DNA of 64,000 nucleotides from positions 682,001 through 746,000 of the forward strand of contig CDPCPM010000049.1 in NCBI GenBank assembly GCA_976551045.1, written 5' to 3'. The DNA comes from Glaucostegus cemiculus. Its lineage: Eukaryota. The notes beneath the pieces are model-generated. The model was not told the origin of the DNA, did no database searches, and was given only the letters and a program-made list of their open reading frames with translations. Positions 1,499-61,917 of this stretch are shown here, piece by piece (position 1 is the first letter of the stretch; every line of letters begins with the position of its first letter). The translations under genes were made by a program, and so were the position numbers.

Positions 1499-1519
1499 CT
1501 AAGCAGATTCTGTCCCAGA
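1499..1519 (-). CDS. NLR-A terminal exon coding part (SGTESA-stop)
   Basis: Acceptor ttgcAG at 1521-1520. The alternative frame LGQNLLRLNG... is homologous to the NLR-B last exon LWGNQFSSDG... Confidence 0.6.
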   Translation of the reverse strand, partial: SGTESA

Positions 1520-4500
1520 CTGCAAAATAACATGAGATTAGAAAATAAAAGCACGGCTTCAAATAACGTAGGGTAACACTCATATATTATGTATTCTCGG
1601 GAACGATGGGTAAAACATGAAAACACAATCAATAAGGAGTCATTCATGTGAAACTGCTCAGCCATTAAGTAACATCATGGTCAGTCAGAATTGACAGCAG
1701 CTCCATGTCACTATTTCACATATCCCCATAAATCTTTTACAAGACATAAATCTATTTTGGCCTTGAATTAATTCCAAAGCATCTGGGATAGGTGATTCCG
1801 ATGTTTGAGGACATAATAAGGATGACTCCCTATTTTGAATCTGTCCCTGTTTCCAGACTTCCCCTGGTCGAGCAAACGGCCAATCAGCAGCTACCTTGAA
1901 CAAAATGGTAGTGTTATTTCAAAGTGCTCTCATTTCATTCTTTGAAACTTCAATGAGCACAGGTCCAACCTCCTCAGCCTTCCACTGATCCATTGAGGTG
2001 TGTTCCATCAGTGCACGTACGTCCCTCCTTGAATAAGTGAACCAAAACTACACGCACTACTCCAGATATGATTCATTAATGTATTGTACAGATGGAGTAG
2101 AATTTTCTTGCTTTTATACTGCTTTGCAATGAAGGCCTACATTCCATTTGCCTCACTTATTACTTGCTGTGCGCCAAAATCCAATAGTTGTAGAGGCCGA
2201 AAATCTGATATTGAAATAGAAAATGCTCGTCATGTTCATCAAGCCACAAAGCTTTCACAAAGGGGGTGAAAAATTGGTAGTTGCTTCAATTTTCTAGTTG
2301 GTAGATATGAGTAAGACATTGTGTGGGGTTCTATGCATTGCAATAGACATTAGAAGATACACTTACTGCATCTACTCCAGACTCCTGCTGATCAGTGGTG
2401 GAGAAAGGGGAATCAGGTTGGTCTGATGAGAAGCTTGATCCCAAGTTGACATCCTTCATTTTTTGAACTGTACTGAGACTGGAGATGAGATCCTCGGAGC
2501 AGGAATCAGAGATCCCAATCCTGGCAAGTCTAATAGAGGGGTGAGAGTGAGTGAGTAAGTGAGAGAGGGAGCGAGAGCACAAAGGGCTGATAGAGGGAGA
2601 GTGATGGAGGGAAGGGGCGGAGAGAGAAAAAGAGGCAAAAAGAGAGAGGGAGAGAGAAATTAGAACAAGAATAGGTCTCCATTTCTATGTAACGATGGAA
2701 TGCTACGGAAACAGTACACCAGTAATAATCGTGGAAAGCCGGGACAAGCTAAGTGTCAAGAGTGCCCATCACAGGCCGATATTCACCCCAGTTTCTCTAT
2801 TTTACATTCTGGATCCATCAGAGCTTCGTTCAGCACTTTCATTCCTGTGTCTCCCAGTTTATTGTCATTCAAGTACAATCCCGTCAACGAGTCATTTTTC
2901 ATGAGCGCAGATGCAAGATCCTCTGCACAAGACGGCGTGAGGCCATTATTGTTCAATCTGTCAGAGAATCAAATCTCATAACATTATAAAAATAAAGACA
3001 GGAATGTGACAAAAGTTGCTGCGAATAACTGTATTTCCTATTTACGAATTAGAACATAGTTATGGGCTGATATTGAGGCTTCAATCATCCATAAATTATA
3101 CCAGGCTTTCAGAATCTCCCATACGTTCACTCAGTTAGGTGCTTACCGCAATTCCTGTATCTTGCATTCTGTGTCCTTCAGAGCTTCAGACAGCAATTTC
3201 ACTCCTGAATCTCCCAAATTATTATCACCCAGTGAGAGGTCCGTCAATGAGGGATTAGTGCTGAGAGCGGAGGCAAGATCCCAGGCACAAGAAGCTGTCA
3301 GACCGTTATTATTTAGACTAGGAATGAGAGAAAGGAAACAAAATTAAAATGAGCTTTGGATGGGAAGGAACGAATCCGACCAAATGTCTTACATTTAGTT
3401 GTAGTCTCACATTTACAGAATAGAGCAGGGAATTCTGTGCTGTCTTTAAAGACTTTAATCTTTCCTCAGTGTTATTAATGCTTTTAGAAATTGCTTTCAT
3501 CTCATTCAATCTGACACTTGCCTCAGCTCCTGTATGTTACAGACTGGGTCCCTGAGAGCCGCAGACAACACTTTCACTCCAGAATCTCCCAATTCGTTTT
3601 CACCTAGATCTAGTTCAGTCAGTGTTGGTGTTGTATTGACAGTGGAGGCGAGATCTTGGGCACAAGAGGCGGTAAGACCATTTTTATTCAAGCTAAGGAT
3701 TGGGGGAAAAAATTTAAAGATTATAAACATAAGAAGATCAGTAAATGTATTGCAAACAAGTGTAAGCATCACAGTCTATCACATGTACTATCATATGTAC
3801 TGTTGGAGAAGTTTAATTCATGTACATTATTGCTCCATTGAGAATCATCCACAGTCTCAGTCAATCACGTACTTACCAAAGTTTCTGTATTTTACAGTCT
3901 GGGTCCCTCAGAGCTGTAGATAGCACTTTCACACCTGAATCTCCCAGGTTGTTATCGCCCAGTTCCAGCTTCGTCAGCGAAGGTGTTGTGCAGAGCGCGG
4001 AGGCAAGATCCTCGGCACAAGAAGCAGTGAGACCGTTGTTATTCATCCTTGGCATGAGAGAAGAAAAGACGTAATTTGAAGATTAAAATAAAGACAGGAA
4101 TATTGGTGACTTTGGTGTGAATGACTGATGCTCAACATTTACACAACAGAGTACGGGAATATGAGCTGCAGTGAAGGCCTCTTAACTCTGAAATGTATTG
4201 AGATTTTCAGAATATCTCAAAGACTCCCTCAGGAAGACACTTACCCCAGTTCCTGTATCGGACACTCTGAGTCCCTTAGAGCAACGGTCAGTCGCTTCAT
4301 TCCCGAATCTCCCAGTTTATTATGACCCAGGTCTAGCTCCTTCAGAGAACGGTTTGTACTGAGAGCTGGAGCGAACATTTTGGCACAAGAAGCCGTGAGT
4401 CCGTTATTGTTCAGACTAGAATCAAAAAAAGTAAAAAACACAGAGTAAAAGAATGACAGGAAGATTACTGAATTGTTTCAAGTAATTGCATACTTGCATT

Positions 4501-7500
4501 AATAGATTAGAGCTTGCGAATCAGTGTGTTTATAAAAAGTACATTCATCCATACACTTCATTCCGTCCTTGGTCTCGTATCCGCTCACAGAATCTTACCG
4601 CAATGTCTGTATTTTACAGTCCTGTATCGTCAGAGCTTCAGAAAACTGTTCCACTCCAGAATCTTCCAGTTCATTATCACCCAGGTCAATCTCCGTCAGT
4701 GACCGGTTTGTGCAGAGAGCAGAGGCCAGATCCTCAGCACAAGAGGCTGTAAGATTGTTATTATTCAGGCTGAGGGTCAGAAAATGGAGCCAAATAAAGA
4801 GATGAAAGGAAAGCAGGAGAATTGCTCAATGTGTTTTGAATAATTATAGTGAAGTAGTTACAAATAAGTGCTTTGGATGTCTTACTGGTATTGAACCATT
4901 TTTCATCCTTAAACATTATAAGAGCTATTCTCACACGATCGTGTGCTTACCGTAGTTTCTGTATTTTACACTCAGGGTTCCTCAGAGCTTCACACAGTCG
5001 TTTCACTCCAGAATCTTCGAGTTTGTTATTACCCAGCCCCAGCTCTGTCAACAACGAGTTTGCAGTGACAGCCGAGACTAGATCTTCGGCACAGGAATGC
5101 GTCAGATTGTTATTATCCAGTCTGTGGTACAACAGAAACACTATGTGAGAGAGAGAGAGAGAAAAAGAAAAAGTGATGAAAATGAACAAACGAAAGAGAA
5201 ACAAGATGACAAAGAATGCAGCAGGAAAGTGAGATGGAAGAAGAAAGAAGATAGAAAGAGCAAGGGAAAGTGTGAAAGAGACAAAACAAAGTTGAAATGA
5301 AAAGAGAGAGAGAGAGAGAAAATACCAACAGAGAGCAATATGGAATATGAGATGGGGGTCGGCGTAAAGAGAGAAGAGGCAAACTATATATAAATAATGG
5401 AGAGAGCGAGGAAAAAAGGTGAAGAGAAGAAAGAAGACAGAAAGTGTAAAGACAGTGGAATAGTGGACGACGTAAGAGGGAAATGGGGAGAGAGTAACTG
5501 GTGGAGGGGGGGAAACAGAAAGGACGGTAGAAAGTAATGTGGAAGGAGGGTACTACAGGGGAAATATGGACACAGAATTAAAAGAGAAAGATGAGAGAGA
5601 AATAATGAAAACAGGGAAATAGCAAGAATAAGGTAATATCATGGCAGTTTTGAAATACATGTTAATTATAAATCTGCCTCTACCAATAATAAAATGTAGA
5701 TTTGAAATATCTAGATATTCTGTTTACAATTTCACATAGTTCGTGTCTTACCCCAATGCTTGTATTTCTGACTTAGGTTCAGTCAAAATCTTGGACAATA
5801 TTTTCATTCCGGAATCTCCCAGGTTATTTCCTTCCAACCTGAACATAAATGGACAGATGATGCCAAATTATGGATGTCTGATAGATTTGGTGCTTTCACT
5901 GAGCATTGTGAAAACATGAAATGTATCATATATAGAACAGCATCTCCTATAAATTAAAGTCAAAGAACGTTATACCTATTGAAGGAACAATGCGTTTCTG
6001 AAAACCTTTAAATGCTCCTCGCCATTTTCCCTATTCACTGGCCATCAGAAATATCCTCCAGGACTTTTGTCAGGACGAAAGAAATTCGTTTTATGTTTGT
6101 TGCTTCATCATTATCATGTTGTTTTCGGAATAGGCGATCTCTGCTTCCAACTAAAATAATTTCTAAATGATATTTTGTTTTAGTTTTACAATCACTTGCT
6201 ACTCCTGAAAGTACAATCCAGATTTTTTTTCCCCCATCTGGAAGGCAGTAATGTTTTCTAAGTTCTGTCGAAATGTTGAATTTCGATCAAATAAGAATGC
6301 AATGCCACATTTTGATTGACGTCACAAAATCCGTATTGGTGGTGGCGTCAAGCTGGTAGATATGAAGAATGTTGGGAGTATCGGTGTGATACTTCTACGC
6401 ATCAGTGAAATGTTTTGCACCTTCTTCATGCAATTATACTTATCATAATTCTGAACTATTACTGCCAAGACAATGGCTTTCTTTTCCTTTCTCATACCAT
6501 AGCTGTTTGATGCTAAATTGCCACTAAAATGGGTAAAAACAACCGCCTTGAGTAAAATGGATGAGTATTAGTTCTCAATCCCATTGACTAATTTACTCAT
6601 GGGAACTGAAAAAAAATCAGATGCTACTGTATGCTAAACAAACAGGGATTATATTTTGATTAATCAGTAATTGTTTAGTTGTAAATATTTGCTTGCTGTG
6701 GGACCAAAATTTGATTTCTTTAAGAATTGCAGTACAAATTGTAGCTCATGTTGTTCCATTGTTTAAGAAAGGCTTAAAGAGTAAACCAGGTAATTACAGG
6801 CCAGTGAGCCTGACATCAGTAGTATGAAAATTATTGGAAGGTGTTCTGAGAGATAGGACATATAAGTATTTGGGCAGCCAAGGGTTGATTAAGGATAGTC
6901 AGCATGGATTTGTGCGAGGTAGATCGTGTTTAATGAACCTTGGAGTTTTTTTGAGGAGGTCACTAAGAAAATAGATGAAGGAAAGGCTGTGGATGTAGTC
7001 TACATGGACTTTAGTAAGGCCTTTGACAAGGTCCCACATGGGAGATCCGTTCAGAGGGTTCAGTCAATGGATATCCATGGAAAGGTTGCAAACTGGATTC
7101 GAAATTGGCTGAGTGGGAGAAGACAGAGTGGTTGTAGATGGTTGTTTCTGAGACTGGAGGCCTGTGACTAGTGGTGTGCCTCAGGGATCTGTTTTGGGGC
7201 CATTATTGTTTGTTGTATAAATCAATGATCTAGATGATAATGTGGTAAATTGGATTAGTAAATTTGTGGGTGACACTAAGATTGGAGGTGTAGTGGACAG
7301 CAAGGAAGGCTTTCAAAGCTTGCAGAGGGATCTGAACCAAATGGAAAAATGGTCCAGAAAATGGCAGATGGAATTTAATGCAGACAAATGTGAGGTGTTG
7401 CATTTTGGAAGGACAAATCAAGGTAGGACATACGCAGTAAATGGTAGGGCACCGAGGAGTGCAGAGGAACAAAGGGATCTGGGAGTTCAGGTACATTTTT

Positions 7501-10500
7501 CCTTGAAAGTGGTGTCACGGGTAGACAGGGTTGTAAAGAAGGCTTTTGGCATTCTGGCATTTATAAATCAAAGAATTGAGTATAAGAGTTGGAATGTTTT
7601 GGTAAGGCTGTATAAATCATTGGTGAGACCAAATTTGGAATATTGTGTGCAGTTCTGGTCGCTGAACTACAGGAAGGATGTCAGTAAAATTGAAAGAGTG
7701 CAGAGGAGATTTACTAGAATGTTGCTGGGTCTTCAGGAGTTGAGTTACAGGGAAAGATTGAACAGGTTAGGACTTTATTCCTTGGAGTGCAGAAGAAATG
7801 CAGAAGAGTGCAGAAAGGGAAGACATGATAGAAGTTTACAAAATGATGAGGGGCATATTAATACAAGTAGGCTTTTTCCACCCAGATTAGGAGAGATGAG
7901 TATGAGAGGACATGGCTTTAGGGTGAAAGGGGAAAGGTTTTGGGGGGAACATTAGGGGGAACTCCTTCACTCAGAGAGTGGTGGGAGTGTGGAACGAGCT
8001 GCCATCTGACGTGGTAAATGCGGGCTCACTCTTAAGCTCTAAGAATAACTTGGATAGGTACATGGACAGGAGAGGTCTGGAGGGTTATGGACTGGGTGCA
8101 GGTCAATGGGACTAGCAGAATAATGTTTCAGCACAGACTAGAAGGAAATCAGTTAGTAATTTGTAGAGTATTGAGAAAGTTGGTGCTCTATTGGTATGCA
8201 AAAGAATAAAAATCACGTTAATGACATATTTTGTTGCAAATTCAGTTGATATTGAATGAAAGAAATAAAGAATCACCTCAGCACTTGGCATTTATGCAGG
8301 ACCGGTTCAAGGCGCAGGAGCCCTTCATGCTGAAGAAAGCAGTTCTGAAGATCAAGCTGGCTTATTTTATGACAGAGTTTAATGGCATGCGACACCACAG
8401 CACAATCAATTGGTGTGAGTGATAATGCCTTCTCAGGATCTGAGTCTCCAAATGCAAGTGTTGGCACAGAGCCCAGCGTAGTTTCAGCAAGTCTACGATT
8501 CTGAGTCTCAAACAGAAAGTGCAATGTGTTCAGCAGGGTTCTTTTACCAGTTTCACTCCACGTGCTTCCAATCTGGTTTTTCACCTTCTCCTTCACCCAG
8601 TCAATAACTCGGCATGTTGTTTCGTGAGGAAATGTTCCCAGAAACTCTTGCAGTGGTCGAGCTGACCCAGGGAAGGAGAGACCAGCAACAAAACGCAGCA
8701 ATACCTCAAATCGCCCATCTTTCTCGCTGTGGGTTTCAGTGAGGAGCTTCCAGATATCCCCAGGATCTGGAGTCAGGAATTGTGCAAGTGCGGCCACAAA
8801 TTCTTGGATGGTAAGGTGTGGGAAGGTGTACACCACATTCTGGATACAATCTTCTCTCTCCAAAAGTTCCACCAGGAAACCAGACAGGAACTGGGAAGGC
8901 TGCAGATTGTGTTCGGTCAAATCTTCATTTCTAAACACAATTTTCTTCTCGGCCACTCCTCTGAAGGCCATCTTACCCACCCTCAGCAACATATCTTGAC
9001 AATTTTCAGTCCCTGTGACATGTTTCTTAAGGATGTCGTAAATAAAAAAAGAATATAATTGGGTGATAGTCTTGGGAATTAGCTGCAGCTTCCTGTCTCT
9101 TTGTGTGAAGAAGGGTCCTAGTGTCTGGCCGAGGATGCAGCAGTAGGAGGGATTGTAGCTCATGGTGTACAGGATCTCGTTCTCCTTAATGTGTTTGAAA
9201 ACAGCTGCTGCCACAGTCTGATCTTCAAAAAACCTATTGAAATATTCTTCCCGTTCCTTGCCAACAAATCCCATGATTTCAACCCAGGGATTGATCTGCG
9301 CTTTTTCCAGCAAATGCAACGCAGTGGGACGGGTGGTCAGTAGCACTGAACATCCTGGGAGCAGCTTGCGCTGTATCAGACTGTACACAATGTCAGATAC
9401 TTCGCAAACACATTCGGGATCAGTGCAGATATGCTGAGGTTTTCTGTTTCTCTCATCGTCATTAAAATCGATATGGCCCTTGAATTCATCAAAACCGTCA
9501 AATATAAACAGCAAAACAGTTGGATTCTTCCAGATTTCTTCTATAACATCCTCCAGATAAGGAAATGAATTTAAAATCAGCTGTTTCAAAGTCACTTTGC
9601 CGTTAATGCCATTCAGATCACGGAATTTAAAACTGAAAACAAATTGAAACTCTGGGTATAGGGTCCCCGTGGCCCAGTCGTGAACTATTTTCTGCACCAA
9701 GGTTGTTTTTCCAATCCCTGGGACTCCACAGGCAGCTGCTGAACACCCTGAATTAAATTCCTCAGCATGCCCGTTAGATCTCTGCACCAGACGGACTTCC
9801 CGGGACAAGCTACTTCGAAATAACTGATTGATGTGGATTTTTTCCAGATTTTTCTTTAGATTCCATGCTCTGAATTCTTCATGATCTTTGCCACGTGCCA
9901 AAAGCTCATGCTCCACCAGCTTCCATTGTCGGATCGGAGAAACGATCGTCAATTCGGTGTATCGGTCACCCAGCTGGGAAATCTTAACCTTTTCCTTCAT
10001 CGGGCTTGTCTTCATTTCAAATCTCTCATTCAGCTTTCGGAGCGTTTCTTTGTGTTCCTTGTGAACATCTTTGATCAGAGCAAAAAGGGTTTTAGCACTT
10101 CCCTGCGTTATGAATTGCAAAATTAAGTTGCGGCTGTGTACGATTTCGATTCGAATGTAATATTGTTGCCGGTTATTTGTACGGAACTAGACGTTAAATG
10201 TAACATTCCCAACATGGAACTGAGTGTTTATAATGATCTTGCTCTCCCCTTGATTCATTGCCTTTCCCTTCCCATTCTGTGCATCTCTGTCTCTTACCTC
10301 TCCAATTCTCCCTCCCCCCCCCAACCTCGCGCTCCCTCCTCCCAACCTCCCACGTTATCCACCCTCCCACCATGCCCACTCGACTCGTCTCACTGCTTCA
10401 GTTCATGCACAGCTGCCTCTACCCAACCCTTTCTCTCTTGCGACTCAACTCCTTGCCCTCGCTCTCCTCTCCTACCATGCTTCATTCCTTATCTTCCCAG

Positions 10501-13500
10501 GACACCCCGTTACTCTGCCCATGCCATCATCCTCCAAATGTCTACCCCTTTGCCAACCCCTTCCTATTTATTGCCCCCACATCACTCTCTCTATCATCTC
10601 CCTCTCCTTTCCATCCATGCACCATCTTTCTCTTCAACACTAAATGAAATGTATTTCTTCTTCCTGGATACGTAGTGTTTGTCATTTTCATAGGGACCTT
10701 GAATTGTTACTCAAAGGGAAGTAGAGCAGTGTTATGGAGAAAGGGGAAGGCAGGACTAATTAGACAGCTCTGTCACACAACTGACAATCAATTAAATGGG
10801 CCAAACTTTTTTCCTGCACTTTATATGTCGATATCAAAAGCAACTCTTCTGTTCTTCCTTTCTTAATTATCTTTGTCAAAGATGCAAATGGTGACATGTC
10901 CCCCAGCCATGCATTGCTGAAGTTGCAGGAAAATAAAAAAAATCTCAATGATCATTAGGGGCACAGATAAGGGGACTGGTAACAGCTTTTATCCCAATTT
11001 AAAGAGTATCAAACTGATGGGCATAGGCTTAAGGTGTGAGGAGAAAGATTTAAATGGCACATGAGGGACAGGGTTTCCACACAGACGGTAACAGTTTTAT
11101 TGAATGAGCTGACAGAGGAAGTGCTAGAGGCGGGTGCAATTATAACTTTTAACAACCATTAGGCAGGCCCATTTATAGGAACAATTTGGAGTGATATGGG
11201 CCAAACGCAAGGAAATGGGACTAGCTCAGTTAGGCAACAGTTGGCATGGACAAGTTGGGCAAAGGGCCTGTTCCCATGCAACATAACTCTCTAAACAGCT
11301 GAATGCCGAGTAACCTACAAATTATTTCCATTTGAATATCAATTTTTATCAGTCCTTAGTCTTCAAACAATTGGAAAAGTTTGCTGTTATTACAAGAACA
11401 TTTCAATACAAGATGTATTTCTGCTGTTATAAAGAATCTTGATGAGACCACATCTGGGATACACTTGTAAGGAGAGAGAGAAGGAGAGAGAATAACAAAG
11501 AGAGAGAATGTCAACAATGAATTATGAGATTCATTCTTGAAAAGGAGCGGGGCGGTGATCCAATGAAGAGTTTAAGGAGAATGGACCAATACTCCAGAAC
11601 TTAGAATGAGCTGTGATTCAACTTAAAGCAACAAACTTCACACAGAGCTTGACGTGCTAAATGGAGGGATGGAACAAATTGCGCTGCACTGGCCACCAGA
11701 ATTGGGTGTCATTGCCCCAAAGGAAGGGTTGGCCACTCAAGACTGGGATGAAGAGAAATCTTTGGAATTCTCCATCAAATCAGTCGTGCAGTCTCTGTCG
11801 CTGTGTATAATGGATATTAAGGGAATCACACATGGGACGAGTGCTTGAGAGTGGCTCTGAGGTAAAAGATCAGTCAATAGCTGATTAAATGGAAGCTCAA
11901 TTAAGAAGGATGGAGTCACCTGCCCTTGTTTCTATTCACGAGCTCTTACTGAGCTTCCAAGAATGGACAGCTGACGGAGGACACAATTGAATTCTCCCTG
12001 ACGTGAATCTGGATATGCGAACACAAGTGAAACAAGAAGAACCCTATTTCCATTGCAAGTAGGTAGAATTAAATGTCTGTTGAAGTATATGACTAAAGAG
12101 TAGGCATTGCTGCCAACTTGGAATCCCTGCCCATTTCCATGGCTCGTTCACACTTCCGGACCCGAGCACTGCCAGCTTTTATGGCTAACCATTTATTGCC
12201 ATGGAAAGGCAGTGGTGAGCCATCTTCTTGAACCTCTGCAGCCTTTCTTATCAACGAAGATGCTGAGTGGAGTTGAAGGAGTGAGACGTTGGTGATGAAG
12301 ACACCGTGATATATTTCCAAGCCTGGATGTTGTGAGACATGGAGTGAAAGTGCGGATGGTGGTGGTTTTCCTATGTTTACTGCGTGTTTGCAGCATGGAA
12401 GGGATTGGAGTTGACGAGGTGCATAACGGCATTGCATTTTATAGATGCCACGTACTTCAGCCACTGTGTGCTATTGGTGGAGGGAATGAATACTTTGTGT
12501 AGTGAAGTACAAATCAAGTCAACTGCTTTGCTTTGGCCAACGTCAAGCTTCATGAGTATTGTTGAAACTGAACTCATCTTGGCAAGCGCCCTCCGAACGT
12601 GAATTGTTGAGTGGAAAAGTTTGTGGTGTCAGGAGATGACACAATCACCTCAGGATGCCCAGTGTCTGAACGTTGGCAGCACAGGATCTATATGGCTGAC
12701 TAGTTCAGCTGTGCTATTAGGAAACGCTGAGCCCTAGAAGGTTGATACTGAGGGTTTCAATGGGGGATTGGGGGCGGGTGCATTCAATGGCAGGAGCTAG
12801 TGGTTAAACTCCACTGTTGAAGACATCTGGCATTTTTCTATCAGTTACCGTGGATTACCTTGACTCAAAGTAGTCCAGTCTCTGCTATATATAGACACGA
12901 AGCCTGTCAACTGTGAAGGAGTTGTCCATGGAATTGAAGCTTGTGCAATCATTAGCCAAGAGCCCACTTCTGACCTTATGATGGAAGGAAGGCCGTTGAT
13001 GAAGCAACTGAAGATTATGGGGTAAAGGAACGTCGTGGGGCTGGTATCTTTTATCTTTAACAAATACAACCCTTTGAGCGCGATGTGACTTCAACCGTTT
13101 GGTGCATTGTCCTAGATGCTCTCTTGGCTTCAGTTTTATCAGGACAAGCTAACAAATTATATGGTTAAATGCTGCCTTAGTGTTGCTACACCACCTACCT
13201 TTCAGGTGACTGGGTACTTCCGGTATTCTTTCTGGGATGGCTGCATAGCTTGGAAGAGCGGTACCTGTTTGAACCAAGCACAACCGATGAGCTTGTAGAT
13301 GCGTTACATCAGTACAATAGGCTGCTTTAACATTGACATTAAGGTGAGAATGCGATGGAAGTATACCGTGTTCCTCCACGTCTTTCAAAATGCTGTCCAG
13401 TTTAGGTACTCCATGACGCATGTTTGCAAAGGATTCCCACATAACTCTTTGGGCTGAGGGACCTTTCATCATCACCATATCCAGGAGAAGTTTGGAGCTT

Positions 13501-16500
13501 TCTGCTTCACGCCCTTTGTCTGCAAGTTCAGTGACCATCTGGAAGGAAACAATAAGTAATATGATCAGAAGTACAGCAAATCAACCGGATGCACAAAGGT
13601 AGTGGTCAGTGAGATGAGGAGCAGTTATGTTAGTATATTAAGCAAAATCAAGATAGGTTACTTCCGACACTGGAAGCCTTGAAACTTGCCGAGGACGTGA
13701 TATTGTAAAAAATGTGACATCTTGCTAGAGTTTTAAACTCATCTGATTGTGTACACGGCATCAACTTCCATAGTTTTTCATACTTTATGTCCCATTGTCT
13801 CCAACAGCCCACTGCATTAAATTGCCTCTGTGTGACTAACTATGTGATCAAGCGCTGATGGATCCCAGCAGTATCCCCATAATATGCATTGCTAAATAAC
13901 CACAGTTTAATTACAGACAGATTTATGCGCCGCTTACAACAAAGGTACGCAACGTCAAATGTGGCGTGATGGATCTGGTAAATATCTGGATATTCCAGCT
14001 TCTTTCATGCATCCAAATGTTGGTTGATTGAACTGCATCATTTGAAAGGGCAGCGTAGTGGCAGCTCAGGACTTGGGAGTGCTAGGTGCCTGGAACGTGT
14101 TGTCAGGGAAAACATTGGAAGCAGGTACGAAAGCACATGAACAGGCAGACAGTGTACGGATACAAATCACATGCAGGCGATTGGGATGAGTTGAAATTGG
14201 CAATATAGTCGGCACAGGTATCATTGGCCAAATGGCCTGTTCCTGTGCTGTTCTCTTCTGTGTTCCATGTTAAATTCCAACTGAGCCTCCCATAATTTCC
14301 AGTAGGAACACCGCTCACTTCAAACTCAGCAAGTGTTTCAAACACTCAGCAGATCAGCAGTAGCTGTGGAATGAGAATATTTCAGCTCGGAGACTTTGCT
14401 GGAACTGAGAACGTGAGATTAAATTGCACAGAATGTGGAGAGGAGAAGGGGAATATCAATAATGAGTTGAAGCTATGGTTGCTGCAGGGATGAACTGCTA
14501 ATAGAGCAGTTAGAGGCATCAGAGAAGTGTAATGTGTTGTAAATAGCAGGATACGCTGTCCAACTAGAGAGGGGAAAAATGTGCCAGTGTTGAAATGGGT
14601 GGACTGCAGTGGTAAAGGCCAGAAAGCAAGTCCAACAACAACACAAAGTGATGCAAACACTCCGCATGTCAGCCAGAATCTCTGGATCAAGAAATGGAGT
14701 TGGTGACTGTTCTTCATAACTCAGGCTGCAAGACTGATTCTCAGTTTTCACTGGGTAAAGCTTCGTGTGGATTATCCCGTTGAGTTCCATCTGAGCAGTT
14801 CCTCGTGTTAAGGCCATGACGCCAGTTCGAGCCGATCAGCTAGGACCCCAGTTCCAACTGATCCAAACTATTATCATCAGAGGGTAACCCTGAGTTCTAT
14901 CTGATCTTGGTTCTACTTCCCTCCAATTCCAATGGTAGCAAATCTAATCCACAGATTGTAACACACCATTGTCTAAAACTAACCACTCCTTCACCAACTG
15001 GTTTTCAGTTCAAACGGCATGTCTCCTTCATCCCAGATTCCAAGAAATGGATTGATGTTTCATCACTAGAGTGACACCTAGTCCAAACTGACCTAATTCC
15101 ATAAAAACTGTGACCCTCATTTGCAAATGAAAGACAACCACTTTCAAGAGGGCAATTACCTGTTCTAAATGTGCAGGGTTAAACTGCAAGTGGGGACACC
15201 CAGTTCTGTCCAATCCCCAGACTGTGTACTCAAATTCCAATACACTTACTAAAGTCCAAGCGCTGTTCCTCATATTTCTGTGAGACAGGCCGGTGATTCC
15301 AAAACTGACCCCCGAGTTCAAACTCTCCGTCTTCCAACAACCTGTCTCCAGTAACAACCATCTACTCTAATCCCTAGAAATTGATTCTCAGATCTGACAA
15401 TGTCCTCTAATCTTGTGAATGGCTCTGAGTTCCTGCTGACACACTCAAAACTGGAACAGACACTTGCAACTGACCAACCACTAATTCAGTTCAAACTGAC
15501 AGACATCTCCTTCCCAGACTGTGGCACATCCAAAGCTTAGTTCCCCCCACCCCATTAATGGACCAACTCCTAAACCCCAAACAGCGAACTGCAGCTCCAT
15601 CTGACCGACCACTCATCCAGCAAAAGGCCATTCATTGTAACTCCAAAACATATAATCCCAACACTGATTCCTTTCTAACTGGGCAATCAAATTGGAAAAA
15701 TGCAACCCTCAGTTCTAGATCCATTTTACCAATCGTATTTATTCCACTTCGCTGATCTTTGACCCTTCACTAATGGGGACGGCTTTTCCATTAACTCCTT
15801 CCTTACTTTTTTCAGATTTTAGCTCATTAACCTTCTGTTCTGCAGAGAGCAAATCTAACTCCTCCAATTTATCCAAATACCTGAAGTCCCTCTTTCTTGA
15901 GTAAGCTTTTTAGCACCCTCCCTAAAGACCTCCTGTCGTACTTGAGTGTGCCCCCAGATCTGGGCGCAATGATCCATTTTTTCTAGTGATAGAGTTCTCC
16001 AAACTCTGATACCAGTTTCTGGCTCTTGCACTCTCTGTATGTGTTTACACTGCTCAGGGCTCTGTACAGTTATAAAACCCTATTTCACACTAACCCTTCT
16101 CCTTTCATCAAAGGATACATGTAAACCCGCACTCTTTCCTTACTTGTACTCTTTTGAAAATTGCAGCCTCTCCTATACATTGCCTTTTCCCTCTCTTCCT
16201 ACCAAAACGTACACAATTCTTAATGAATGTGAACACCAACGACCCTCCGAAACCACTGACCTGTTGCTCTCTCCTTGAAATATACTATACTCCTCACATT
16301 TTACTACACCTCTACATTTTGTTTTGACCTGTACATCCAGATCTAATTCACGTATGCATGTTCAGAAAAATCAGCAGGTCCCTGGCTGACCCCAGCAGAA
16401 TTTGGTCCGAGCACTAGTCAAATCAGTACTCCCAGTACTCTCTCCGTTCCCGCTACTGAGCCATTACCTTTCCTTGCTGTTTCAGCCTATTATTCCACGC

Positions 16501-38791: not shown

Positions 38792-38851
38792 AAGCAGCAA
38801 CTCCTTATTGTACGCAGCAAAAACTTATTATAAGCAGCAAAACCTTATTAG
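38792..38851. repeat. 3 x 20-bp tandem repeat (gcagcaa...cttatt)
   Basis: Units at 38792, 38812 and 38832. Confidence 0.75.
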
Positions 38852-44287: not shown

Positions 44288-44374
44288 AGGACCAGAATTT
44301 GACAACAGTTGTCACGAACATGGCTGAAGGTGCACACAAGGGAGGAGATCCAGCGATCTCACCAACAGAAAAGG
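44288..44374 (+). CDS. NLR-B start-codon exon (MAEGAHKGGDPAISPTEK)
   Basis: Acceptor ttacAG, aacATGGCT at 44320, phase-1 donor GTTCGT joining in frame to 48493. Confidence 0.72.
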
Positions 44375-47300: not shown

Positions 47301-50300
47301 CGTACGAAGGCCAGCATGATTTACTTCCTTCTGCTCCTGCATGTTTACCTTTAGGAACCGGTGAACAGACGCTTCCAGACTCGCTGCACCTCCCTTTTCC
47401 CGATCTGTCACCATTCTGATAAGCTGCCTTTCTGATATTGCCACCGAAGTGGATTTACTCTTTTTTTTTTATGTACGCTGTTTCTGGCAAGTGCTGATTC
47501 ACTTCCTCAACCAGTCCAAATGAACCCATGGCTTCTTTGCATTCTTTTCAAGGCTCACTGTCCCAAACTTCCTTGGTTCTTTGACAAAGTTGGCAATGTT
47601 ACATCTAATCCCCTCATACAAACCATTAATATGTGCTATGAACAGCTGGATCCTGGCACTAGTTCATGTGCTACCCCACTAGTCACTGCCTTCCACTTGG
47701 AAAAAGGATCGTTGATTGCCATTCTCTTTCCTGTCGACCAATCACTTTTGTATCCATATCAGCATTTTAGTCTCAATTCCAATTGCTTTAATTTTCATGT
47801 GAGGGTCTAACCTGGGGCCTTACTGAAAGCTTCATGCAAGTCGATCCCCTAGTCCAGGGTCTTCGATTCTGCAAGGTACATCCTCAAAATACCCCAGTTG
47901 GTTCATCTGGCATGACTCCCCCTTCACAAATCATTGCTGAATTCTTCCTATGCTTTCTCTTTTTCTCCTCTTACGTCTTCTACATTGGTTCAGGATTACC
48001 CTCATCATTTTTGTAGGAGGAACCACTCTAAAATTCCTTATTTTCTCTCCACCTTTCTGTTAGTTTTGTGTTAGCTAGCATCCAATCCACTGAAACTATT
48101 TCCGAGTCTAAAGAATGTTAGAAAGCGACTGTCAGTGCCTCCACTATTTCTAGAGGTACTGCTGTCTGAGGTACTCTTCGCCAGTTGAAATGACATTGCT
48201 GAACTAGGTAATTGCACGAGCTACTGGTGAGTACACAGTGACAACAAAGTTGATCCAGGGGGCCCATAGGACGTTAACTTCAGTCCAGTCATATTGTATT
48301 CATTTGAAATACCTTTGTTAAGATCAGACAATGTGGAGCAGCGGCTACAGCAGGTGGGTTGAGTGTGTAGTGTTTCGAATTTTGTTTGGTGCTGTGGCAC
48401 ACAGCAGCTGTGTCTTTTGGTTCTAGAGAGGATGTTGTTGTTGTCCAATAGGATGAGATAATTTATTTAGCTTTCTGTATTTCTCTTCACAGATCCGAGC
48501 TCAGTATTCACCGAGCTCTTGGCAAATTGGGACGATTTCAAGCTCTTCCAGTTGACATACTTCTACCGGGACCGTCTGGAACAGGCGATAGAAGGAGGAG
48601 TGCACGGAGTCAGTCTGGCATTAACGTACGAGAGGCAGTTCAGTGGATTGGAACATCGGGTGAGTGGGGAGGAAAATGATCGCTTTTGGGTTATTCACAC
48701 ATCATGGACCGTCCGAATGTCAGAGCTCAGAATTGTCGGGCGTTAACGTGGAAACGCAGAAGAAAAATTAGGAAATCAATTTATGAAACTGAAAATATTG
48801 TGGATCTGAAGCAATAACAGAACAGAGTGAAAAAAAACCCTGCGCATTGTTCAGAGGGAGATGGAACAGTAATGTTAGTGTAGACATGGAATAAAGGAAT
48901 TTAAATGGAGATGTGACGGGAATCTACAGTTAATCTCTGGGAATATTGCAAAATGTGACAAGGGGAAATCAGTGCATCATCTGTTAGACAATAAACCCGT
49001 TGTTTTGTTGTACACCAGAGGACTGAGATCATTTATCACATCACTAATTCTGCAGCTTCCTAAAAACTCATCACTCTCCTAGAAATATCGTCCAATTTTC
49101 TAAATTCATCTCTGATCATTATTTTCTGTTTATGTTCCACACAGCACTTGGGGCAGATATTTTCCAGCTTTTAAGGATTTGGAACCAAATCGGGGGTGTG
49201 GAGTTTAGTCACAGATCTGCCAGGATCTCATTGACTGGTGGAACAGGCTTGAGGGTGAAGGTCCCTCCCTGTGTTCTGCTCCCAGAATGTACGACCGTTT
49301 TCAGGCAGGATCAGCACCCGTCCCTGTGACTGCTCACATTGTGGTAGAGGGTTCCCGTCACAGAGCGGGTCATTTACTTCTCATTCTCTGTATGAATCTG
49401 TCAGTCCACTCCTCAAATTATTCACTGTTACTCTTCACAGAAAGTCACTGATCTCGCTGATGAGGGCAAGCGGGCATACAGTTCCAAACTCCTCATGAAC
49501 CTGGTGATGGAAAAGGGCTCCGGAGCCCGGAGGGTAATGTGGGAAACATTTGTGAAAATGCGGAATGGCGTTCCAAAGTTTGACAACATACTGAAAGAAA
49601 TACAGGAACACGGTGAGATAATATCGGAGAGGAATTCAACCTTGGATTCAATCATTGCACTATTTACAACCTTATATATTTGATTTCCTCAAATTTGTTT
49701 AAATTCAAGCAGGTTTTGATCCAAGCAATCTAGCAAAAATCGCCCAAGGTTTACACGAGGTGCCCAGTGAGCTGAAAGGTAAGGGATGAAACGACTGTTC
49801 CAACAGTACCTTTTAGTGGACTGTTCCACAGCAAACCACAGGGACAAATGTTGGCACTGTAACACAACAAACGGTAGGACAAATGAAAGACATCTGTTTA
49901 ATGGAGAGGTTTCAAGGGACATTGTTATGAGGGACAAGGCAGAGAGTTGGTCAGCTTCAGGAAAGGGATCAGATCGCTCTGGGGCTTGTAGCTGCAGATC
50001 CCTCCACTCGAGTCAGAACGATTAAAGTCAGGACGGACAAGAGGGAGAATCTGGAGGAGGGAGAAACTGGACAATTGCTTCACATCCCCCCAAAAACATC
50101 AAACCCTTCCCCACCTCCATCCTAAACAATCCTCACCTTGAATCATCTTTCTCACCTTGAATCATCTCAGAGTAGAATTTCCTATGGTTGGGTGCCCACA
50201 TCACTTCTGGTCAAGGAGTAACAGTCTTATTCCCCTTATTTAGAAGAGCATAAAATTCCCCAGGTAATCTGTTCAATTCCAAGCAAGCAATGTACTCCAC

Positions 50301-55357: not shown

Positions 55358-55432
<75 letters not shown>

Positions 55433-58400
55433 TGGTGCTGCCTGATCTACTGAGTATTTCCAGCACATTCTGATTGTATTTTGAAGCAACGACAGTGGAA
55501 TGCCTACGAATCACCAGTGTGCCCTAGGACAGAATACATAATCCCATGTTCCCTATCTGAGCCCTCAAGATCAACACTGAGGTTTTTAAAATAGGTTATC
55601 CAAGGAAAACATAGTTGTGGTTGTAGTGGGAGCATAAATAAAAGATAGGCGGGAATTAGTGAACAATCAGAGGAACATTCACCTTCAGAATGTGAGGGTC
55701 CGATTATTTTTCAACCATTGCTCTCTGTCGACTCGCGTGTCTGTAACAAGTGTAAATTCCTGCACTGAAATCCACTTTTGAGTTGAAAGATTATTCACCC
55801 AGTTCACGTAGTCTTAAATGCTGAGTTTTGCTCTAATAATTCACTACTTTCTGTCTGTTCCCATGGAAGATTTACAACAGAAACACAAGGACACTCTGCG
55901 GGCACAAACTGAAACACTGAGAGTGAACACAATCCTGATGAGGGAGAAGGTTAAGGTTTTCCAGCTGGTTGATCGATACATTGAGCTTACGGTCATTTCT
56001 ACCATTAGAGATTGGAGATTTGTGGAACATGAGCTGCTGGCCAGAGGACGGGAGCATGAGGAGTGGAGGGAGAAATATCTCCAGAGAGAGCTGGAAAAAA
56101 TACGAACTGATCAATTGTTCCAGATCAGCTTTTCCCGGAGTAAATCCAAATCTGGGAGTACAGCAGTAGTGGCTGGAGTCCCAGGGATCGGAAAATCAAC
56201 AATGGTGCAAAAGATTGTTTATGACTGGGCCACAGGGAAGATATTCCAACACTTCCAATTTGTCTTCAGTTTCAAATTCAGGGATTTAAACACGATTAAC
56301 TGTACCATAAACCTGTCGAACCTGGTCCTCTTTTTCTATCCTTACCTGAGGAATGTTCTGGAAAAGCTGTGGAGGAATGCAGAGAAATTGCTGTTTATAT
56401 TCGATGGTTTGGATGAATTCAAGGACAGAATCGATTTTGCTGACAGTCAGAGAGACAGAGAACCTCAGCACATGTGCACAGATCCAGAATTCCGGTGTAA
56501 AGTCTCGGATATTGTGCACAAGTTAATCCAGCACAAGTTGCTCCTGGGGTGTTCAGTGCTAGTGACCACCCGCCCCACTGCACTACATTTATTAGAAAAG
56601 GCGGCGATCAGTGTCTGGGCTGAAATCCTGGGATTTGTGGGTGAGGAACGCAAGGAATATTTCAGCAGGTTTTTTCAAGATCGTAAGGTGGCAGCAGCTG
56701 TGTTCAAACACGTGCAGGAAAACGAGCTCCTGTACACCATGAGCTACAACCCCTCCTACTGCTGGATCCTTGGTCTGGCACTTGGCCCCTTCTTCACACA
56801 AAGAGGCAGGTATCCTCAGCAAGTTCCCAAGACCATCACCCAACTATATTCCTACTATATTTACAACATCCTGAAAAACCACGCTCGTGAGATTCAAAGC
56901 CCTCGTGATGTGTTACTGAGGGTTGGTCAGATGGCCTTCAGAGGAGTGTCCGAGAAGAAGATTGTGTTTACTGACGGAGATTTGATCAAGTCCAATCTGC
57001 AGCCTTCCCAGTTCCTGTCTGGGTTCCTAATGGAACTCTTGGAGAGGGAGGATTCTTCCCGGAACGTGGTGTACACATTCCCACACCTCACCATCCAAGA
57101 GTTTGTAGCCGCACTCGCACAATTCCTGACTCCAGATCCCGGGGATGTAGCGAAACTCCTCACTGAAGCTCACAGCACGACAGATGGAAGATTTGAGGTA
57201 TTTCTCCGTTTTGTTGCTGGTCTCTCCTCCCCAGGGCCAGCTCGGCGCCTGGAGGAGTTTCTGGGTTCATTTCCTCATCAAACAACCTGCCGAGTGATTG
57301 ACTGGGTGAAGGAGCACGTTAAACGTCAGATTGCGAACACAGGGAGTGAAGCTGGTAAAAGGAACCTCCTGAACACAATGCACTACCTGTTTGAGACTCA
57401 GAATCGTGCCCTGGCTGAGGCCGCACTGGGATCTGTGGATACACTTTCATTCCATGGATTGCGACTGACCCCGATTGACTGCGCGGTCCTGTCTCACACC
57501 ATCGGGCTCTGTGATTCAATAACACATCTCGATCTTGATTGCTGCAACATTCAGCACGAAGGACTCCAGCGGCTGGGACCTGGGCTGCACAAATGCCGGG
57601 AGCTGAGGTGACTTAATTTGGTTCTAATTCTAAATTGTAAATTTTTCCCATTTTTTGTTTCTGTGTGATGCTCTCCCTCTGTGTGACTCTCTCCCTCTGT
57701 GTGACTCACACCCACTCTGAGTCACTCACTCCTTATCTGTGTGACCATTCCCCCCTCTGTATGTCTCTCTCCTCTGTTGACTCTCTCCCCAGTTGTGTAA
57801 CTCTCACCTCCATGTGACTCACCCCCTCTGTGTGACTCTTGTCCACCACTTACCCTCCCACTGTGTGACTTTCATCTTCGTTCTCCCAGGCACCCTTGCT
57901 CGATGTGACCTGCTCACCCCAACTCGGCATGACTCCCCCTCCCCCCTCCCCCGCTGTGTGATTCTCCCGGACACCCCGCTCAATGAAACTCTCTCTGTCC
58001 TCTCCCTGTCACTCCCACCACGAACAACCCAACTCTGTGAGTCTCTCCCTCGCCCCACCCTCGCTATGTCACTCACTCACCCAGCTCACCCCTGTATGAC
58101 TCTTCCCTCTCTGTGATTCACCCCTCATGCTGTGTAACTCTTTCACTATCTGTGACTCTCTGACACCCCTGTGTGACTTTCTCCCCGTCTGTGTGACTCC
58201 CCCCCCCCTGCCCTCTGTGTGACTCTCAACCCCAGTTGTGGTGCTAAATGGCAATTTTCTCCATTTTGTTTTGCTTCTGTCAGGCTCTCTCCACTCTGTG
58301 CAACTCACTCCTCAATCTGAGTAACACTCCATCCCCACTCTGTGTCCCCAATCTGCTATGTGACTCCTCACCCGCTGTGTGATTCCCCCTTTGCGTGATG

Positions 58401-61400
58401 CTACCCCCTCTCTGTGACTCTCCCACACCCCCGCACGATGTGACTCTCTCTCCTCTCCCGCCTCCCTTGATGCGACCTTCCCCCAACTGTGTGACGTTTC
58501 CCCACTCTGTAACTCTACTCCAAACGCAGCGTGACTCTCTCCCCACTCTGGTTGCTTGAAGCTCCTCCCCTCACCGTGTGACTCTCTGCACCGCTGTAAC
58601 GTTCTCAGCCCCGCTGTGTGATGCTCTCCCCCCACTGTGTTATACTCCCCATTGTGCTCCTATCTCCTCGTTGTGTGACTCTGTCTGACTCTCACCTTCT
58701 GTGTGACTCAGTCACCCTTTGTGTGACTCTCTCCCATGTCCTCCCTCCACTTGACCTCACTCTCTCTCCTCCAACCCCACTCGATGTGACTCTTTCTCTC
58801 CCAGCCCCATTCCAGGTAACTTTATCCCACCTCCTCACCTTGTGACACTCTCTCCCTCTCCCTCGGTGTGATCGTGTTGCAAACCCCTCGGTGTGACGCA
58901 CTCTCTCTTTCGGTGTGAAACATTCTCCCAAACAGTTGGGGGAGGGGTAGTGGAGGGAGAGTGTGTCACACCGAGACGGTATCACCTCCTTGGTGTGACT
59001 CTTTATCCTATACCCACTCGATATAACTCTCTCTTCCACATCCATGGCGTGACTCTCACCCACCCAACCACCCCGCTGTGTGACTCTCTTTTACCATTCA
59101 TGGTGTGAATCCCTCTGCCACCTTTTGTTGTGACTCTCTCTCTCTCTTTCTCTCTCTCTTTCACACTCCCCCCCGTGATGAGACTCACTCTCCAAGCCCC
59201 ACCCAGCGTCTCACTCTCCCCCCACCCCTGGTGTGACTCTCTTTCCCATCCATACGCAGCGGGAATCTGTCCAACACCCTCGGTGTCACTCTCTGTCCCA
59301 GAACCAATTGGCGTGACCCTATCTGACACCCCTACCCTCCGCTCCGCTCCCCTTGCTATTCTCTACATTTCTACGCCCCATTCTGCCCCGTGGGGGACTC
59401 TTGTGCCCTCTCCTGCTGTGTGTAATGACCACCGTCCCCTCCACCACCTCAAGTATGTACCAACTCCTCTTCCCCCACCAGTCTCTATAGCTCTTGAAAC
59501 GCACGCCCAACATTTTCTCAGTCATTAGTGAATGACTGGAGTCACACAATTATTCACTGATGTTCTGTGAAGCTGGGGATTAAGGGGAAAAATTTGGTAT
59601 TGATTATTAATTTCCTGAAGTGTTTCCTCTAATATATGCTTTATATCATACTCGCTGTTTATATTTAGACTGGCGCACAATGACCTGGGAGATTCAGGGG
59701 TGAAACTTGTGTCTGCTGCTCTGAAGAACACAAAATGTAAAATACAGAAACTGCAGTAAGTAACAGACTGAGAGTGAATGTGTCTCCAGTGACTGGGTCT
59801 CTTACAGTAAACATTAATGACTAGAAATTGTATTACTGATAAACACTGGGGATTTGTACCATTTCCTGTCATTTTGTGTCCTTCACCTTCACACTCTCTG
59901 ACCTACAGACTCGTGGGGAATGATCTCACAGATTCTTGCACCGAGGATCTCGCCTCCACTCTCAGTACAAACCGCTCACTGACAGAGGTTAACTTGAGTG
60001 ATAACAATCTGCTCGATTCAGGCGTGAAACTTATGTCTGCGGCTCTGCGGAACCCCGAGGGTAAATTACAGAAACTGTGGTAAGTAGCAGACTGTAGAAA
60101 TGGTGTTTACAGTCACTGGGTGTCTGACACAGAACATTAGTATGATCAGTAATTGTGTTAGTGATAAACACTGGGTTTTTACACCGTCTCCTGCCTTTCT
60201 GTGTCCTTCACCCTCTTTCTTTGATCTCCAGGCTGTGGAACAACGGTCTCACAGATTCTTGTGCCCAGGATCTCTTCTCTGCTCTCAGTATAAACCACTC
60301 ACTGATGGATCTAAACCTGGGTGGCAATAAACTGGGAGATGCCACAGTGAAACTGGTGTGTGTTGCTCTCAGGAAACCAGACTGTAAAATACAGAAACTG
60401 AGGTAAGCACTAGACTCTGTGAGTTTGTATTTACTGTCACTGGGTGTTTGACATTGAATATTAACTTAATAAGTAATTACGTTACGAATAAGCAGTGCAG
60501 ATTTACACTGTTTCTTGCCTCTCTATGTCCTTCACTCTCAGTTTAATCTAATCTCCAGGCTGGCGTGGAACAGTCTCACAGATTCTTGCATCGCGGATCT
60601 TGCCTCCGCTCTCAGTACAAATCGCTCATTGACATATCTGGACCTGAGTGATAATAAACTGGGAGATTCAGGAGTGAAACTGATCTCTGCAGCTCTGAGG
60701 AACTCGGAATGTAAAATACAGAAAATGGAGTAAGTCTCATGCTGTGATCGACTGTGTTTACAGTCACTAGGTGTCTGACATTGAACAGCAATATGATCAG
60801 TAATTGTGTGACTCATAAGCACTGTGGATCTGGACAGTCTCCTGTCTCTCAGTGCCCTTCACCGTCCGTCTCTCCGATCTATAGGTTGAATAATGTCGGT
60901 CTTACATCTGCTTGTGCCAAGGATCTCCCCAACAATCTTGGTAAAAACTGCACCCTGAAGGAGCTGAACCTAGGTGGTAATGATCTGGGAGATTCAGGAG
61001 TGAAACCGTTGTCTGCGGCTCTGAGGGACCCCGACTGTAAAATACAAAAACTGGGGTAAGTACCAGACTGTGAGAGATTGTGATTACAGTCACTGGGTGT
61101 CTGATGCTGAGCAGGAAAATGATCAGCTATTGTGTTACTGATAAACACAGGATTTTCACCGCTCCTGTCTCACTGTGCCCTTCACCCTCATGCTCTGTGA
61201 TCTCCAGGTTGTACAAAGTCGGTCTCACAGATTCTTGTACTGAGGATCTCACCTCCGCTCTCAGTACAAACTGCTCACTGAAGGCGCTGGATCTAAGTTG
61301 CAATAACCTCGGAGATTCTGGTGTGAAAATTGTCTCTGCGGCTCTCAGCAAATCAGAATGCAAAATACAGAAACTGGAGTAAGTACCAGAACGTGTGGGA

Positions 61401-61917
61401 TTGTTTTGCAGTCGCTGGGTGTCTGACACGGAACACCAATGTGATCAGGAATTATGTCAGTCATAAACACTGACCTCATTCTCTCTGATCTCCAGGCTGT
61501 ACAATGTCGGTCTCACAGATTCTTGCACCAAGGATCTCGCCGATGCTCTCAGTACAAACCGCTCACTGACGGGTTTGAATCTAAGATACAACTCTTTCAC
61601 AGACCAATCTATCCCTGCTCTCTGCCGTCTCATACTGAGCCTCCCGAGACTCGAGTGGATCAGGTGAGTGTGTGTGTGCTAATGTTCAGTGTGATAAACT
61701 GTCACCTGATCCGTGAGCTTTTCTGGTGATATTTGTCTGTAAGTGGTGTTGAAATCTTAATCCCAGTCCCCTGTTATTGACACTGCTGTGCATCTGTTTA
61801 TTTCCTCTTCATTCTTCAATCTGTTTCAGGCTGTGGGGGAATCAGTTCAGTTCCGATGGAGAGAACCAGCTGAAGTCGCTGTGGGGATCCAGACCTGGCC
61901 TGAGTGTGGCGCTGTGA
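44320..61917 (+). CDS. NLR-B: CARD-like/FISNA/NACHT/LRR NOD-like receptor (chondrichthyan NLRC3/NLRP3-like family), multi-exon, about 1131 aa
   Basis: Hand-spliced coding exons: 44320-44374, 48493-48659, 49441-49612, 49713-49778, 55870-57607, 59669-59755, 59909-60079, 60232-60402, 60559-60729, 60885-61055, 61208-61378, 61496-61663, 61830-61917. Total 3396 nt, open to TGA. Walker A GVPGIGKS, Walker B LLFIFDGLDE. Confidence 0.92.
45280..46100 (+). mobile_element. Degenerate Penelope-like element (GIY-YIG region)
   Basis: DKARVNLVLISHSTHL and LQVKQRFICT segments resemble Penelope RT C-terminus/GIY-YIG. Confidence 0.5.
46730..48150 (-). mobile_element. Old CR1 LINE fragment
   Basis: 3'-end motif gaaataggagcagg and residual RT sequence (accccactagtcactgcc). 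Confidence 0.6.
48493..48659 (+). CDS. NLR-B exon, N-terminal half of CARD-like domain
   Basis: DPSSVFTELLANWDDFKLFQLTYFYRDRLEQAIEGGVHGVSLALTYERQFSGLEHR; cacAG / GTGAGT. Confidence 0.9.
49441..49612 (+). CDS. NLR-B exon, C-terminal half of CARD-like domain
   Basis: KVTDLADEGKRAYSSKLLMNLVMEKGSGARRVMWETFVKMRNGVPKFDNILKEIQEH. Confidence 0.9.
49713..49778 (+). CDS. NLR-B 66-nt linker exon
   Basis: GFDPSNLAKIAQGLHEVPSELK; phase 1-1. Confidence 0.82.
53220..53460 (+). mobile_element. Penelope-like GIY-YIG fragment
   Basis: VRCSQCSLLYSGETRLGDHFVEQL in ORF 53260..53535. Confidence 0.6.
53460..55070 (+). mobile_element. Degenerate CR1 LINE (RT to 3' tail)
   Basis: ORFs 54256..54534 (FNPDKCEVLHFGRSN) and 54720..55058; tail atgactctatgactct. 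Confidence 0.85.
55323..55429. repeat. (CT)n microsatellite
   Basis: Long near-perfect CT dinucleotide run. Confidence 0.95.
55870..57607 (+). CDS. NLR-B FISNA-like + NACHT + HD1/WH/HD2 exon
   Basis: ORF 55818..57611 with intact NACHT motifs; 1738 nt. Confidence 0.95.
57660..59330. repeat. Degenerate TGTGTGACTCTC / C-rich minisatellite in the NACHT-LRR intron of NLR-B
   Basis: Dozens of tgtgactc-like cores separated by C/T-rich spacers of variable length. Confidence 0.85.
59669..61917 (+). CDS. NLR-B LRR exons (87 nt, five of 171 nt, 168 nt, terminal 88 nt)
   Basis: AG/GT-bounded phase-2 exons encoding RI-type LRRs; ends LWGNQFSSDGENQLKSLWGSRPGLSVAL-TGA at 61915-61917. Confidence 0.92.

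Follow-up and report, generated by a model that had tools for sequence, protein, structure and literature searches.

The window analysed here is a stretch of 64,000 nucleotides from the ray Glaucostegus cemiculus (assembly GCA_976551045.1, contig CDPCPM010000049.1, forward-strand positions 682,001 to 746,000), and coordinates are counted from its first base unless a contig is named. It carries two genes of the NLR family, receptors with a NACHT domain and leucine-rich repeats (LRR), which are read away from each other. Gene A is encoded on the minus strand from 21813 to 1499 (1236 amino acids) and gene B on the plus strand from 44320 to 61917 (1131 amino acids); both splice without an internal stop. 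An original prediction, made from the sequence alone, had described two complete, divergent CARD/NACHT/LRR genes, and the stop-free frames at these ends, the Pfam matches and the CARD fold reported below bear this out. The matching exon architecture that it had listed was likewise recovered in both genes. Coding exons of 55, 158 (A) or 167 (B), 172, 66, 1792 (A) or 1738 (B) and 87 nucleotides are followed by 171-nucleotide LRR exons, seven in A and five in B, and the last two exons measure 163 and 21 nucleotides in A and 168 and 88 nucleotides in B.

In gene A, the 55-nucleotide first coding exon (21759..21813, minus strand like all A features below) ends in one of the gene's two GC splice donors and matches the N-terminus of P0176, a RefSeq model from Pristis pectinata. 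The CARD is encoded by exons 17866-17709 and 13538-13367 (13367..17866), a linker by the 66-nucleotide exon at 13199..13264, and the NACHT, WHD and HD2 domains, identified by Pfam and alignment, by the single 1792-nucleotide exon at 8277..10068, which carries A-type insertions of 12 and 6 amino acids. The LRR exons (87 and seven times 171 nucleotides, 2787..5838) predict a concave face that is rich in asparagine and acidic, and exons 2529-2367 and 1519-1499 (1499..2529) encode a tail of serine and acidic residues. Model P0176 equals the A model in length, has a likewise short last exon and is 88-93% identical to A in each domain, so the splicing of A is independently supported. The first intron of A spans 16 kb, consists mostly of fragments of long interspersed nuclear elements (LINEs) and contains, at 32623-34539 on the minus strand, a 639-codon open reverse-transcriptase frame of CR1 type. 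In gene B, on the plus strand, the 55-nucleotide first coding exon lies at 44320..44374, the CARD exons at 48493-48659 and 49441-49612 with the linker at 49713-49778 (together 48493..49778), the 1738-nucleotide NACHT/WHD/HD2 exon at 55870..57607, and the LRR exons (87, five times 171, 168 and 88 nucleotides) at 59669..61917, with a predicted concave face that is variable.

The Pfam families NACHT, NOD2_WH and NLRC4_HD2 scored above cut-off in the NACHT exons of both genes (NACHT E-values 7e-38 in A and 8e-36 in B), and LRR families did so in the A orthologue P0176. Individual CARD exons gave no Pfam match and the Atlas clusters indicated CARD at 0.89, a lead only; we take the N-terminal domain as a CARD because the predicted fold settled the question. 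The modelled N-terminal domain of P0176 is a CARD (predicted local distance difference test score, pLDDT, 93), its best structural matches are the CARDs of NLRC4, CARD8 and caspase-1, and its comparison with NLRC4-CARD yielded a template modelling (TM) score of 0.81, a root-mean-square deviation of 1.8, a Foldseek E-value of 0.11 and a probability of 1.00. Pfam matched no PYD in the A and B exons or in P0176, and the death-fold matches listed for the model were CARDs. FISNA stayed below the Pfam cut-off (15.2 vs. 28.1 bits), and the solved structure closest to the NACHT-LRR part is NLRP3 (E 1e-110). With a death-fold N-terminus, NACHT, WHD and HD2 domains and C-terminal LRRs, the two proteins have the composition of NLRs. 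Walker A and Walker B are intact in both, as originally proposed, and so is sensor-1; Pfam and the motif alignment revealed neither an integrated extra domain nor a degenerate ATPase motif in A or B. Identity between the two amounts to 57/110 residues in the CARD (51%), 392/579 in the NACHT exon (67%) and 216/371 in the LRRs, and the C-terminal tails cannot be aligned, which agrees with the earlier description of differing LRR surfaces, CARD halves and C-termini.

The pair stands alone: the flanking 130 kb in each direction contain no further NLR exon. Approximately 26 kb past the B stop codon, a 298-residue open frame (C49:770245-771138, plus strand) was identified as the large exon that encodes the N-terminal part of PNPLA8 (iPLA2-gamma); this locus was not among the matches listed by a search for the Patatin family. 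PNPLA8 provides an anchor for synteny comparison of the locus.

Promoters and the spacer between them

Predicted promoters with non-coding first exons lie at 37631..38111 for A (minus strand; GC box 37973-37978, splice donor after 37826) and at 41775..42261 for B (plus strand; GC box 41892-41897, donor after 42057); promoters, non-coding exons and start sites are all predictions from sequence. The two blocks, approximately 480 bases each and both ending in the exon-1 donor, are 68% alike, consistent with the proposed homology of promoters whose GC boxes start at 37973 and 41892. The block is found family-wide: the genome holds 195 candidates, the 40 that were scored are 70-78% alike to the B block, and the GC box is present in 43 of 51 aligned copies. 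Among these 51 copies identity was 68.5% between A and B, 67.7% between A and its best other match, and 73.8% between B and its best other match. The A and B promoters are no closer to each other than to other copies, and the 3.9 kb are therefore two separate promoters and a spacer. The shared control region of about 3.9 kb that had been proposed is retained as a distance between promoters; as a common regulatory unit it is not, since the promoters are separate paralogues and the spacer consists partly of repeats. Gene conversion between the A and B promoters was considered as a general effect and rejected, with segment identities inside the family range; only a 29-nucleotide stretch at the exon-1 donor is identical in both and found in no other copy. 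Many family genes, B included, have a weaker second copy of the promoter block inside intron 1, approximately 1 kb from its start (in the window at 43190-43330 and 36680-36878); it is possibly an intronic regulatory element.

The spacer (38112..41774, unstranded) combines repeats with single-copy DNA, the part at 38560-39500 being single-copy in the genome. Three blocks (39432-39673, 40811-41284, and 41427-41584) are found again between the promoters of four other cassettes, as we call such head-to-head units, with their order unchanged and at 59-67% identity. The first block is a LINE remnant and the non-repeat homology (40811-41584) lies on the B side, so the case for a single origin rests on order, strand and spacing.

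In six sequence runs from two close relatives, designated relatives B and C, contigs tile most of the spacer at about 91-92% identity with gaps in 39920-40740. Contig X8 joins the A promoter to the spacer, contig X9 joins the spacer to the B GC box, and further contigs cover the CARD exons of gene B. No contig in these runs spans the repeat-rich middle of the spacer, a hole that proves nothing. From these contigs, the head-to-head arrangement is probably present in both relatives. The motif scan of the spacer found one IRF-type site (0.2 expected) and no kB or GAS site. The IRF-type site falls in a 52-base stretch that is replaced in one relative B contig, and shared immune elements in the spacer were rejected because this lone site is not kept there.

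The head-to-head cassette in a large NLR family

Two first-look searches for relatives in the genome returned 791 and 765 candidates, and a 30-base NACHT motif with at most three mismatches returned 270 matches, numbers that are not gene counts, as some contigs look like duplicate haplotypes. Mirrored positions with identical scores were seen in C222 and C695, in C260, C306, C406 and C463, and in C695 and C1449, which suggests duplicate haplotypes or very recent duplications, and the counts are inflated for that reason. Judged from these matches, the family comprises several hundred copies. The B NACHT exon is 79-84% identical to the 74 other paralogues listed. Walker B is canonical in 304 of about 325 family motif matches, and bulk members keep their CARD and ATPase motifs. 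In our trees A and B group with shark and ray members of the elasmobranch expansion, and their closest named proteins are batoid. Several RefSeq models (P0001-P0006 and P0008) have two NACHT domains, and the N-termini are long in P0080 and in P0117, the latter containing two CARD stretches; fused annotation of tandem genes may explain some of these models.

The exon-1 donor motif has 35 matches in the genome, including five further minus/plus promoter pairs 4.2-4.4 kb apart. We inspected 26 further promoter loci, hand-picked from the top matches with the known pairs and some near-duplicates excluded: four have a full divergent second promoter, eight a weak remnant there, and 14 none within approximately 9 kb. 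Twelve other cassette copies were traced to their genes over about 28-59 kb per side (near-copy C1449 excluded). NACHT exons are open on both sides in one copy (C463), on one side in six and on neither side in five; that is, 6/7 of the other copies with any open NACHT exon keep just one. Partners were thus not kept or lost together in these copies, which are not fully independent. Four related copies have a broken A-position gene and an open B-position gene, and three of the four share one stop. In four cassette copies the partners are 91-94% alike in NACHT DNA and about 75% alike to A; the inverted 5' arms of these partners match each other at 81-85%. Gene conversion would produce such a pattern.

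The check named in the original prediction was a NACHT phylogeny in which A-type and B-type clades recur as head-to-head pairs. In a 28-row tree, the approximately unbiased (AU) test rejected a single clade of A-position genes (p = 0.0007) as well as a single clade of B-position genes (p = 0.00001). Nor does an A-type partner recur in the cassettes: of 765 candidates, the 73 that scored best include no paralogue of A above 70%, and the other partners are ordinary family members. With these tests and a single-copy A, no distinct sensor and executor clades were found to recur together. What stands of the paired-NLR proposal is that the head-to-head block recurs in the genome and that its two genes evolve differently; the recurring pair of clades falls away. 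The cluster at C695:20001-530000 contains 18 NACHT exons (5/18 broken) with strand alternating at 14 of 17 junctions, and is built largely of recent block copies that are 95-99% alike.

Contrasting histories of genes A and B

The last LRR exon of A has no close copy among 150 scored. Orthologues of A were found in Pristis (90%) and in Mobula, Hemitrygon, Hypanus, Leucoraja, and Amblyraja (72-74%), with 1-3 A-type models per species in these six other batoids. Their accessions include XP_051885774 (Pristis), XP_072131660 (Mobula), XP_072894819 (Hemitrygon), XP_059815422 (Hypanus), XP_055486245 (Leucoraja) and XP_032883671/2 (Amblyraja). The A-type clade (eight rows, support 100/100) branches in agreement with the species tree; its sister group comprises all other sampled batoid members, and sharks fall outside both. 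Its members share the two NACHT-exon insertions, the 6-residue one being present in all orthologues, as well as the LRR array, and most share the serine/acidic tail (identity to A 54/61 in Pristis, 38/61 in Hemitrygon, 25/61 in Leucoraja). The predicted concave LRR face is identical at 66/70 positions in Pristis, 53-56/70 in stingrays and manta, and 48/70 in skates, conservation equal to or above that of the rest of the protein. For B, the best match of the predicted face among 58 proteins is 25/45 and the median 16/45. The NACHT domain of A evolves faster than that of the bulk family (75% vs. 86% for Pristis-Mobula, 73% vs. 83% for Pristis-skate). No A-type shark protein is among 120 listed of 396 matches, though sharks have the family; shark proteins are 76-79% identical to the B NACHT exon. 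In skates, approximately 4-kb contigs (P0011, P0196, P0197, and P0199) encode a whole A-type protein of 1219 residues, and would therefore be spliced transcripts, hence a sign of expression in skate.

No B orthologue above 85% occurs in 240 listed rows of 821 and 1558 matches. B groups with Pristis P0054 and Mobula P0080 (100/99), outside the recent expansion of its own genome. The Pristis B-like proteins examined (79-83%) lie on five other scaffolds and none on the 50.9-Mb chromosome of the A orthologue, indirect evidence of absence, since annotation gaps could hide a Pristis B. Inspected by eye, none of the 240 rows shares a contig with an A orthologue outside Mobula, in which many family members sit on a single chromosome. 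The spacing of Mobula accessions on this 112-Mb chromosome (A orthologue approximately 1,600-1,900 numbers from B-like models) was considered and set aside as too weak. In a chimeric Hypanus model, the A-type gene is preceded by A-type LRR exons in antisense and by a divergent third type instead of a B-type gene. This divergent member, which precedes A-type genes in the chimeric model, is seen in Hypanus P0184 (residues 98-678) and P0188; it has a degenerate Walker B and a long branch, and its sequence makes an ATPase-impaired type possible. P0188 was initially assigned as an A orthologue, and alignment and tree rejected the assignment.

Interpretation and comparison with known systems

We consider it probable, with some reservation, that A and B are self-sufficient receptors on an old inverted-duplication, head-to-head cassette and that each has a separate copy of the promoter found throughout the family. 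Their proximity likely reflects descent and not a sensor/executor team of the plant kind. The cassette would have arisen by an old inverted duplication and been copied as a unit to other places in the genome; there, gene conversion with neighbouring genes would have homogenised the partners, or one or both would have been lost. At the isolated locus beside PNPLA8 both genes would have survived, and A would have kept its own path. In NLRs such as NLRP3 and NLRC4, the LRR keeps the NACHT domain shut until a ligand binds. By analogy, nucleotide exchange would let the NACHT domains oligomerise, and the clustered CARDs would recruit a CARD-bearing caspase or adaptor. The retention of both LRR number and concave face throughout the batoids makes it likely that A recognises a single fixed ligand or guards a single conserved host protein; B is likely one among many sensors that diversify. 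Promoter similarity would lead to similar expression of the two genes, but equally so for much of the family.

Several observations weigh against this interpretation. A retained low-copy gene beside a variable one is an asymmetry that plant sensor/helper pairs also show. The pair is probably older than one species, because the relatives' contigs join each promoter to the spacer. In the C695 cluster seven of the 14 alternating junctions are head-to-head, a persistence of layout. The four copies whose A-position gene is dead are related to one another, so the count of single-gene copies is not independent, and "open" in that count covers the NACHT exon only.

Among the alternatives, we regard as unlikely, though deserving of weight, that A is a helper or modulator shared by many variable sensors of the family, much as NLRC4 serves NAIPs and NRCs serve sensors of the Solanaceae, with B as one client and the linkage a relic of the founding duplication. 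The single copy here and the 1-3 models elsewhere, the sister position to all other batoid members sampled, and the fixed LRR count, face and tail would fit, and a trans-acting helper would allow cassette copies that have an open gene and no live neighbour. A constrained executor should, however, evolve slowly, and the A NACHT outpaces the bulk family; bulk members, moreover, keep their own CARD and ATPase motifs, and the listed shark matches include no A-type protein. More doubtful in our judgment is that the batoid NLR expansion was founded by the cassette at this locus, with A as a batoid-wide low-copy helper serving several hundred sensors and B as its still-linked original partner; if true, this would be a vertebrate counterpart of the plant NRC network. 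We give little credence to a late insertion of B, as an ordinary family member, upstream of an older A, with the resemblance to other head-to-head loci coming from B's upstream DNA and from repeated independent inversions. This would account for the B-side position of the non-repeat spacer homology (40811-41584), the LINE nature of the A-side block (39432-39673), the lack of another copy of 38560-39500, and independent inverted arms elsewhere in C695; yet in other cassettes the LINE remnant is placed and oriented alike with respect to the two promoters, a second promoter or its remnant lies at the expected distance, and B groups outside the recent expansion. Least tenable is an obligate one-to-one sensor/executor pair co-regulated from a shared spacer, as the head-to-head placement 3.9 kb apart and away from other NLRs, the survival of both genes where most cassette copies lost one, the arrangement's probable presence in two relatives and the divergence of the partners (NACHT 67%, CARD 51%) are countered by the lack of a B orthologue above 85% in the listed rows, the separate scaffolds of Pristis B-like proteins, the chimeric Hypanus model without a B-type gene before its A-type gene, the rejection of position-specific clades, the lack of an integrated domain or degenerate ATPase, and the replaced stretch around the sole spacer IRF-type site.

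The locus illustrates how an NLR family of very large size may expand in a vertebrate, namely through the copying of a head-to-head block with two promoters, where the usual fate of one partner is death or homogenisation. A further lesson is that head-to-head orientation by itself is no sign of a sensor/executor pair in the ray NLR family. In a family with otherwise few one-to-one orthologues, A is tractable across skates, sawfish, stingrays, and mantas, which makes it the obvious gene for asking which targets these receptors detect and if there is a helper.

New here is an NLR expansion built on a head-to-head cassette together with one conserved batoid lineage. Our literature search, with most subscription papers outside it, found no head-to-head NLR pair or cassette in vertebrates and no batoid A lineage, and "NLR" and "NACHT" are absent from the main text of two batoid genome preprints. 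The NLRP-related family of elasmobranchs is known as an expansion from the whale shark (PMC8455134); the available parts of that account contain neither the head-to-head cassette nor a batoid-wide A lineage, and our trees hold no whale shark row. A and B resemble this family in a NACHT-LRR part nearest to NLRP3 and in a large lineage-specific expansion with birth-and-death turnover. Unlike what the RefSeq name "NACHT, LRR and PYD domains-containing protein 3-like" implies, their N-terminus is a CARD and not a PYD.

In the zebrafish NLR-B30.2 (NLR-C) genes, the NACHT is homogenised by gene conversion, according to the accessible part of 10.1101/022061. The ray family is similar in having hundreds of clustered genes with a homogenised NACHT, judged against the text available for 10.1101/022061 and PMC11192531, from which the term "head-to-head" is absent. 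The ray genes differ in lacking a B30.2 domain and in a FISNA below cut-off.

For plant NLR pairs, distinct sensor and executor clades are given as a defining trait (PMC6709784, in part), and sensors often carry integrated domains (available portions of PMC10561179 and PMC6709784). Like RRS1/RPS4, RGA4/RGA5, and Pik-1/Pik-2, as far as the sources consulted describe them, A and B are divergent NLRs linked head-to-head, one of them more variable at its sensing surface. Unlike in these pairs, clade in the ray cannot be predicted from position, an extra domain is lacking, and the majority of cassette copies have one gene left or none. The ray also differs from NAIP/NLRC4 and the NRC network, in that its variable members keep their own CARD and ATPase motifs and the A NACHT is not slow-evolving. 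The likeness to these systems is that one low-copy lineage stands beside many variable paralogues (PMC10561179, in the portion available), and that the ray CARD fold, in the predicted structure, is closest to NLRC4-CARD.

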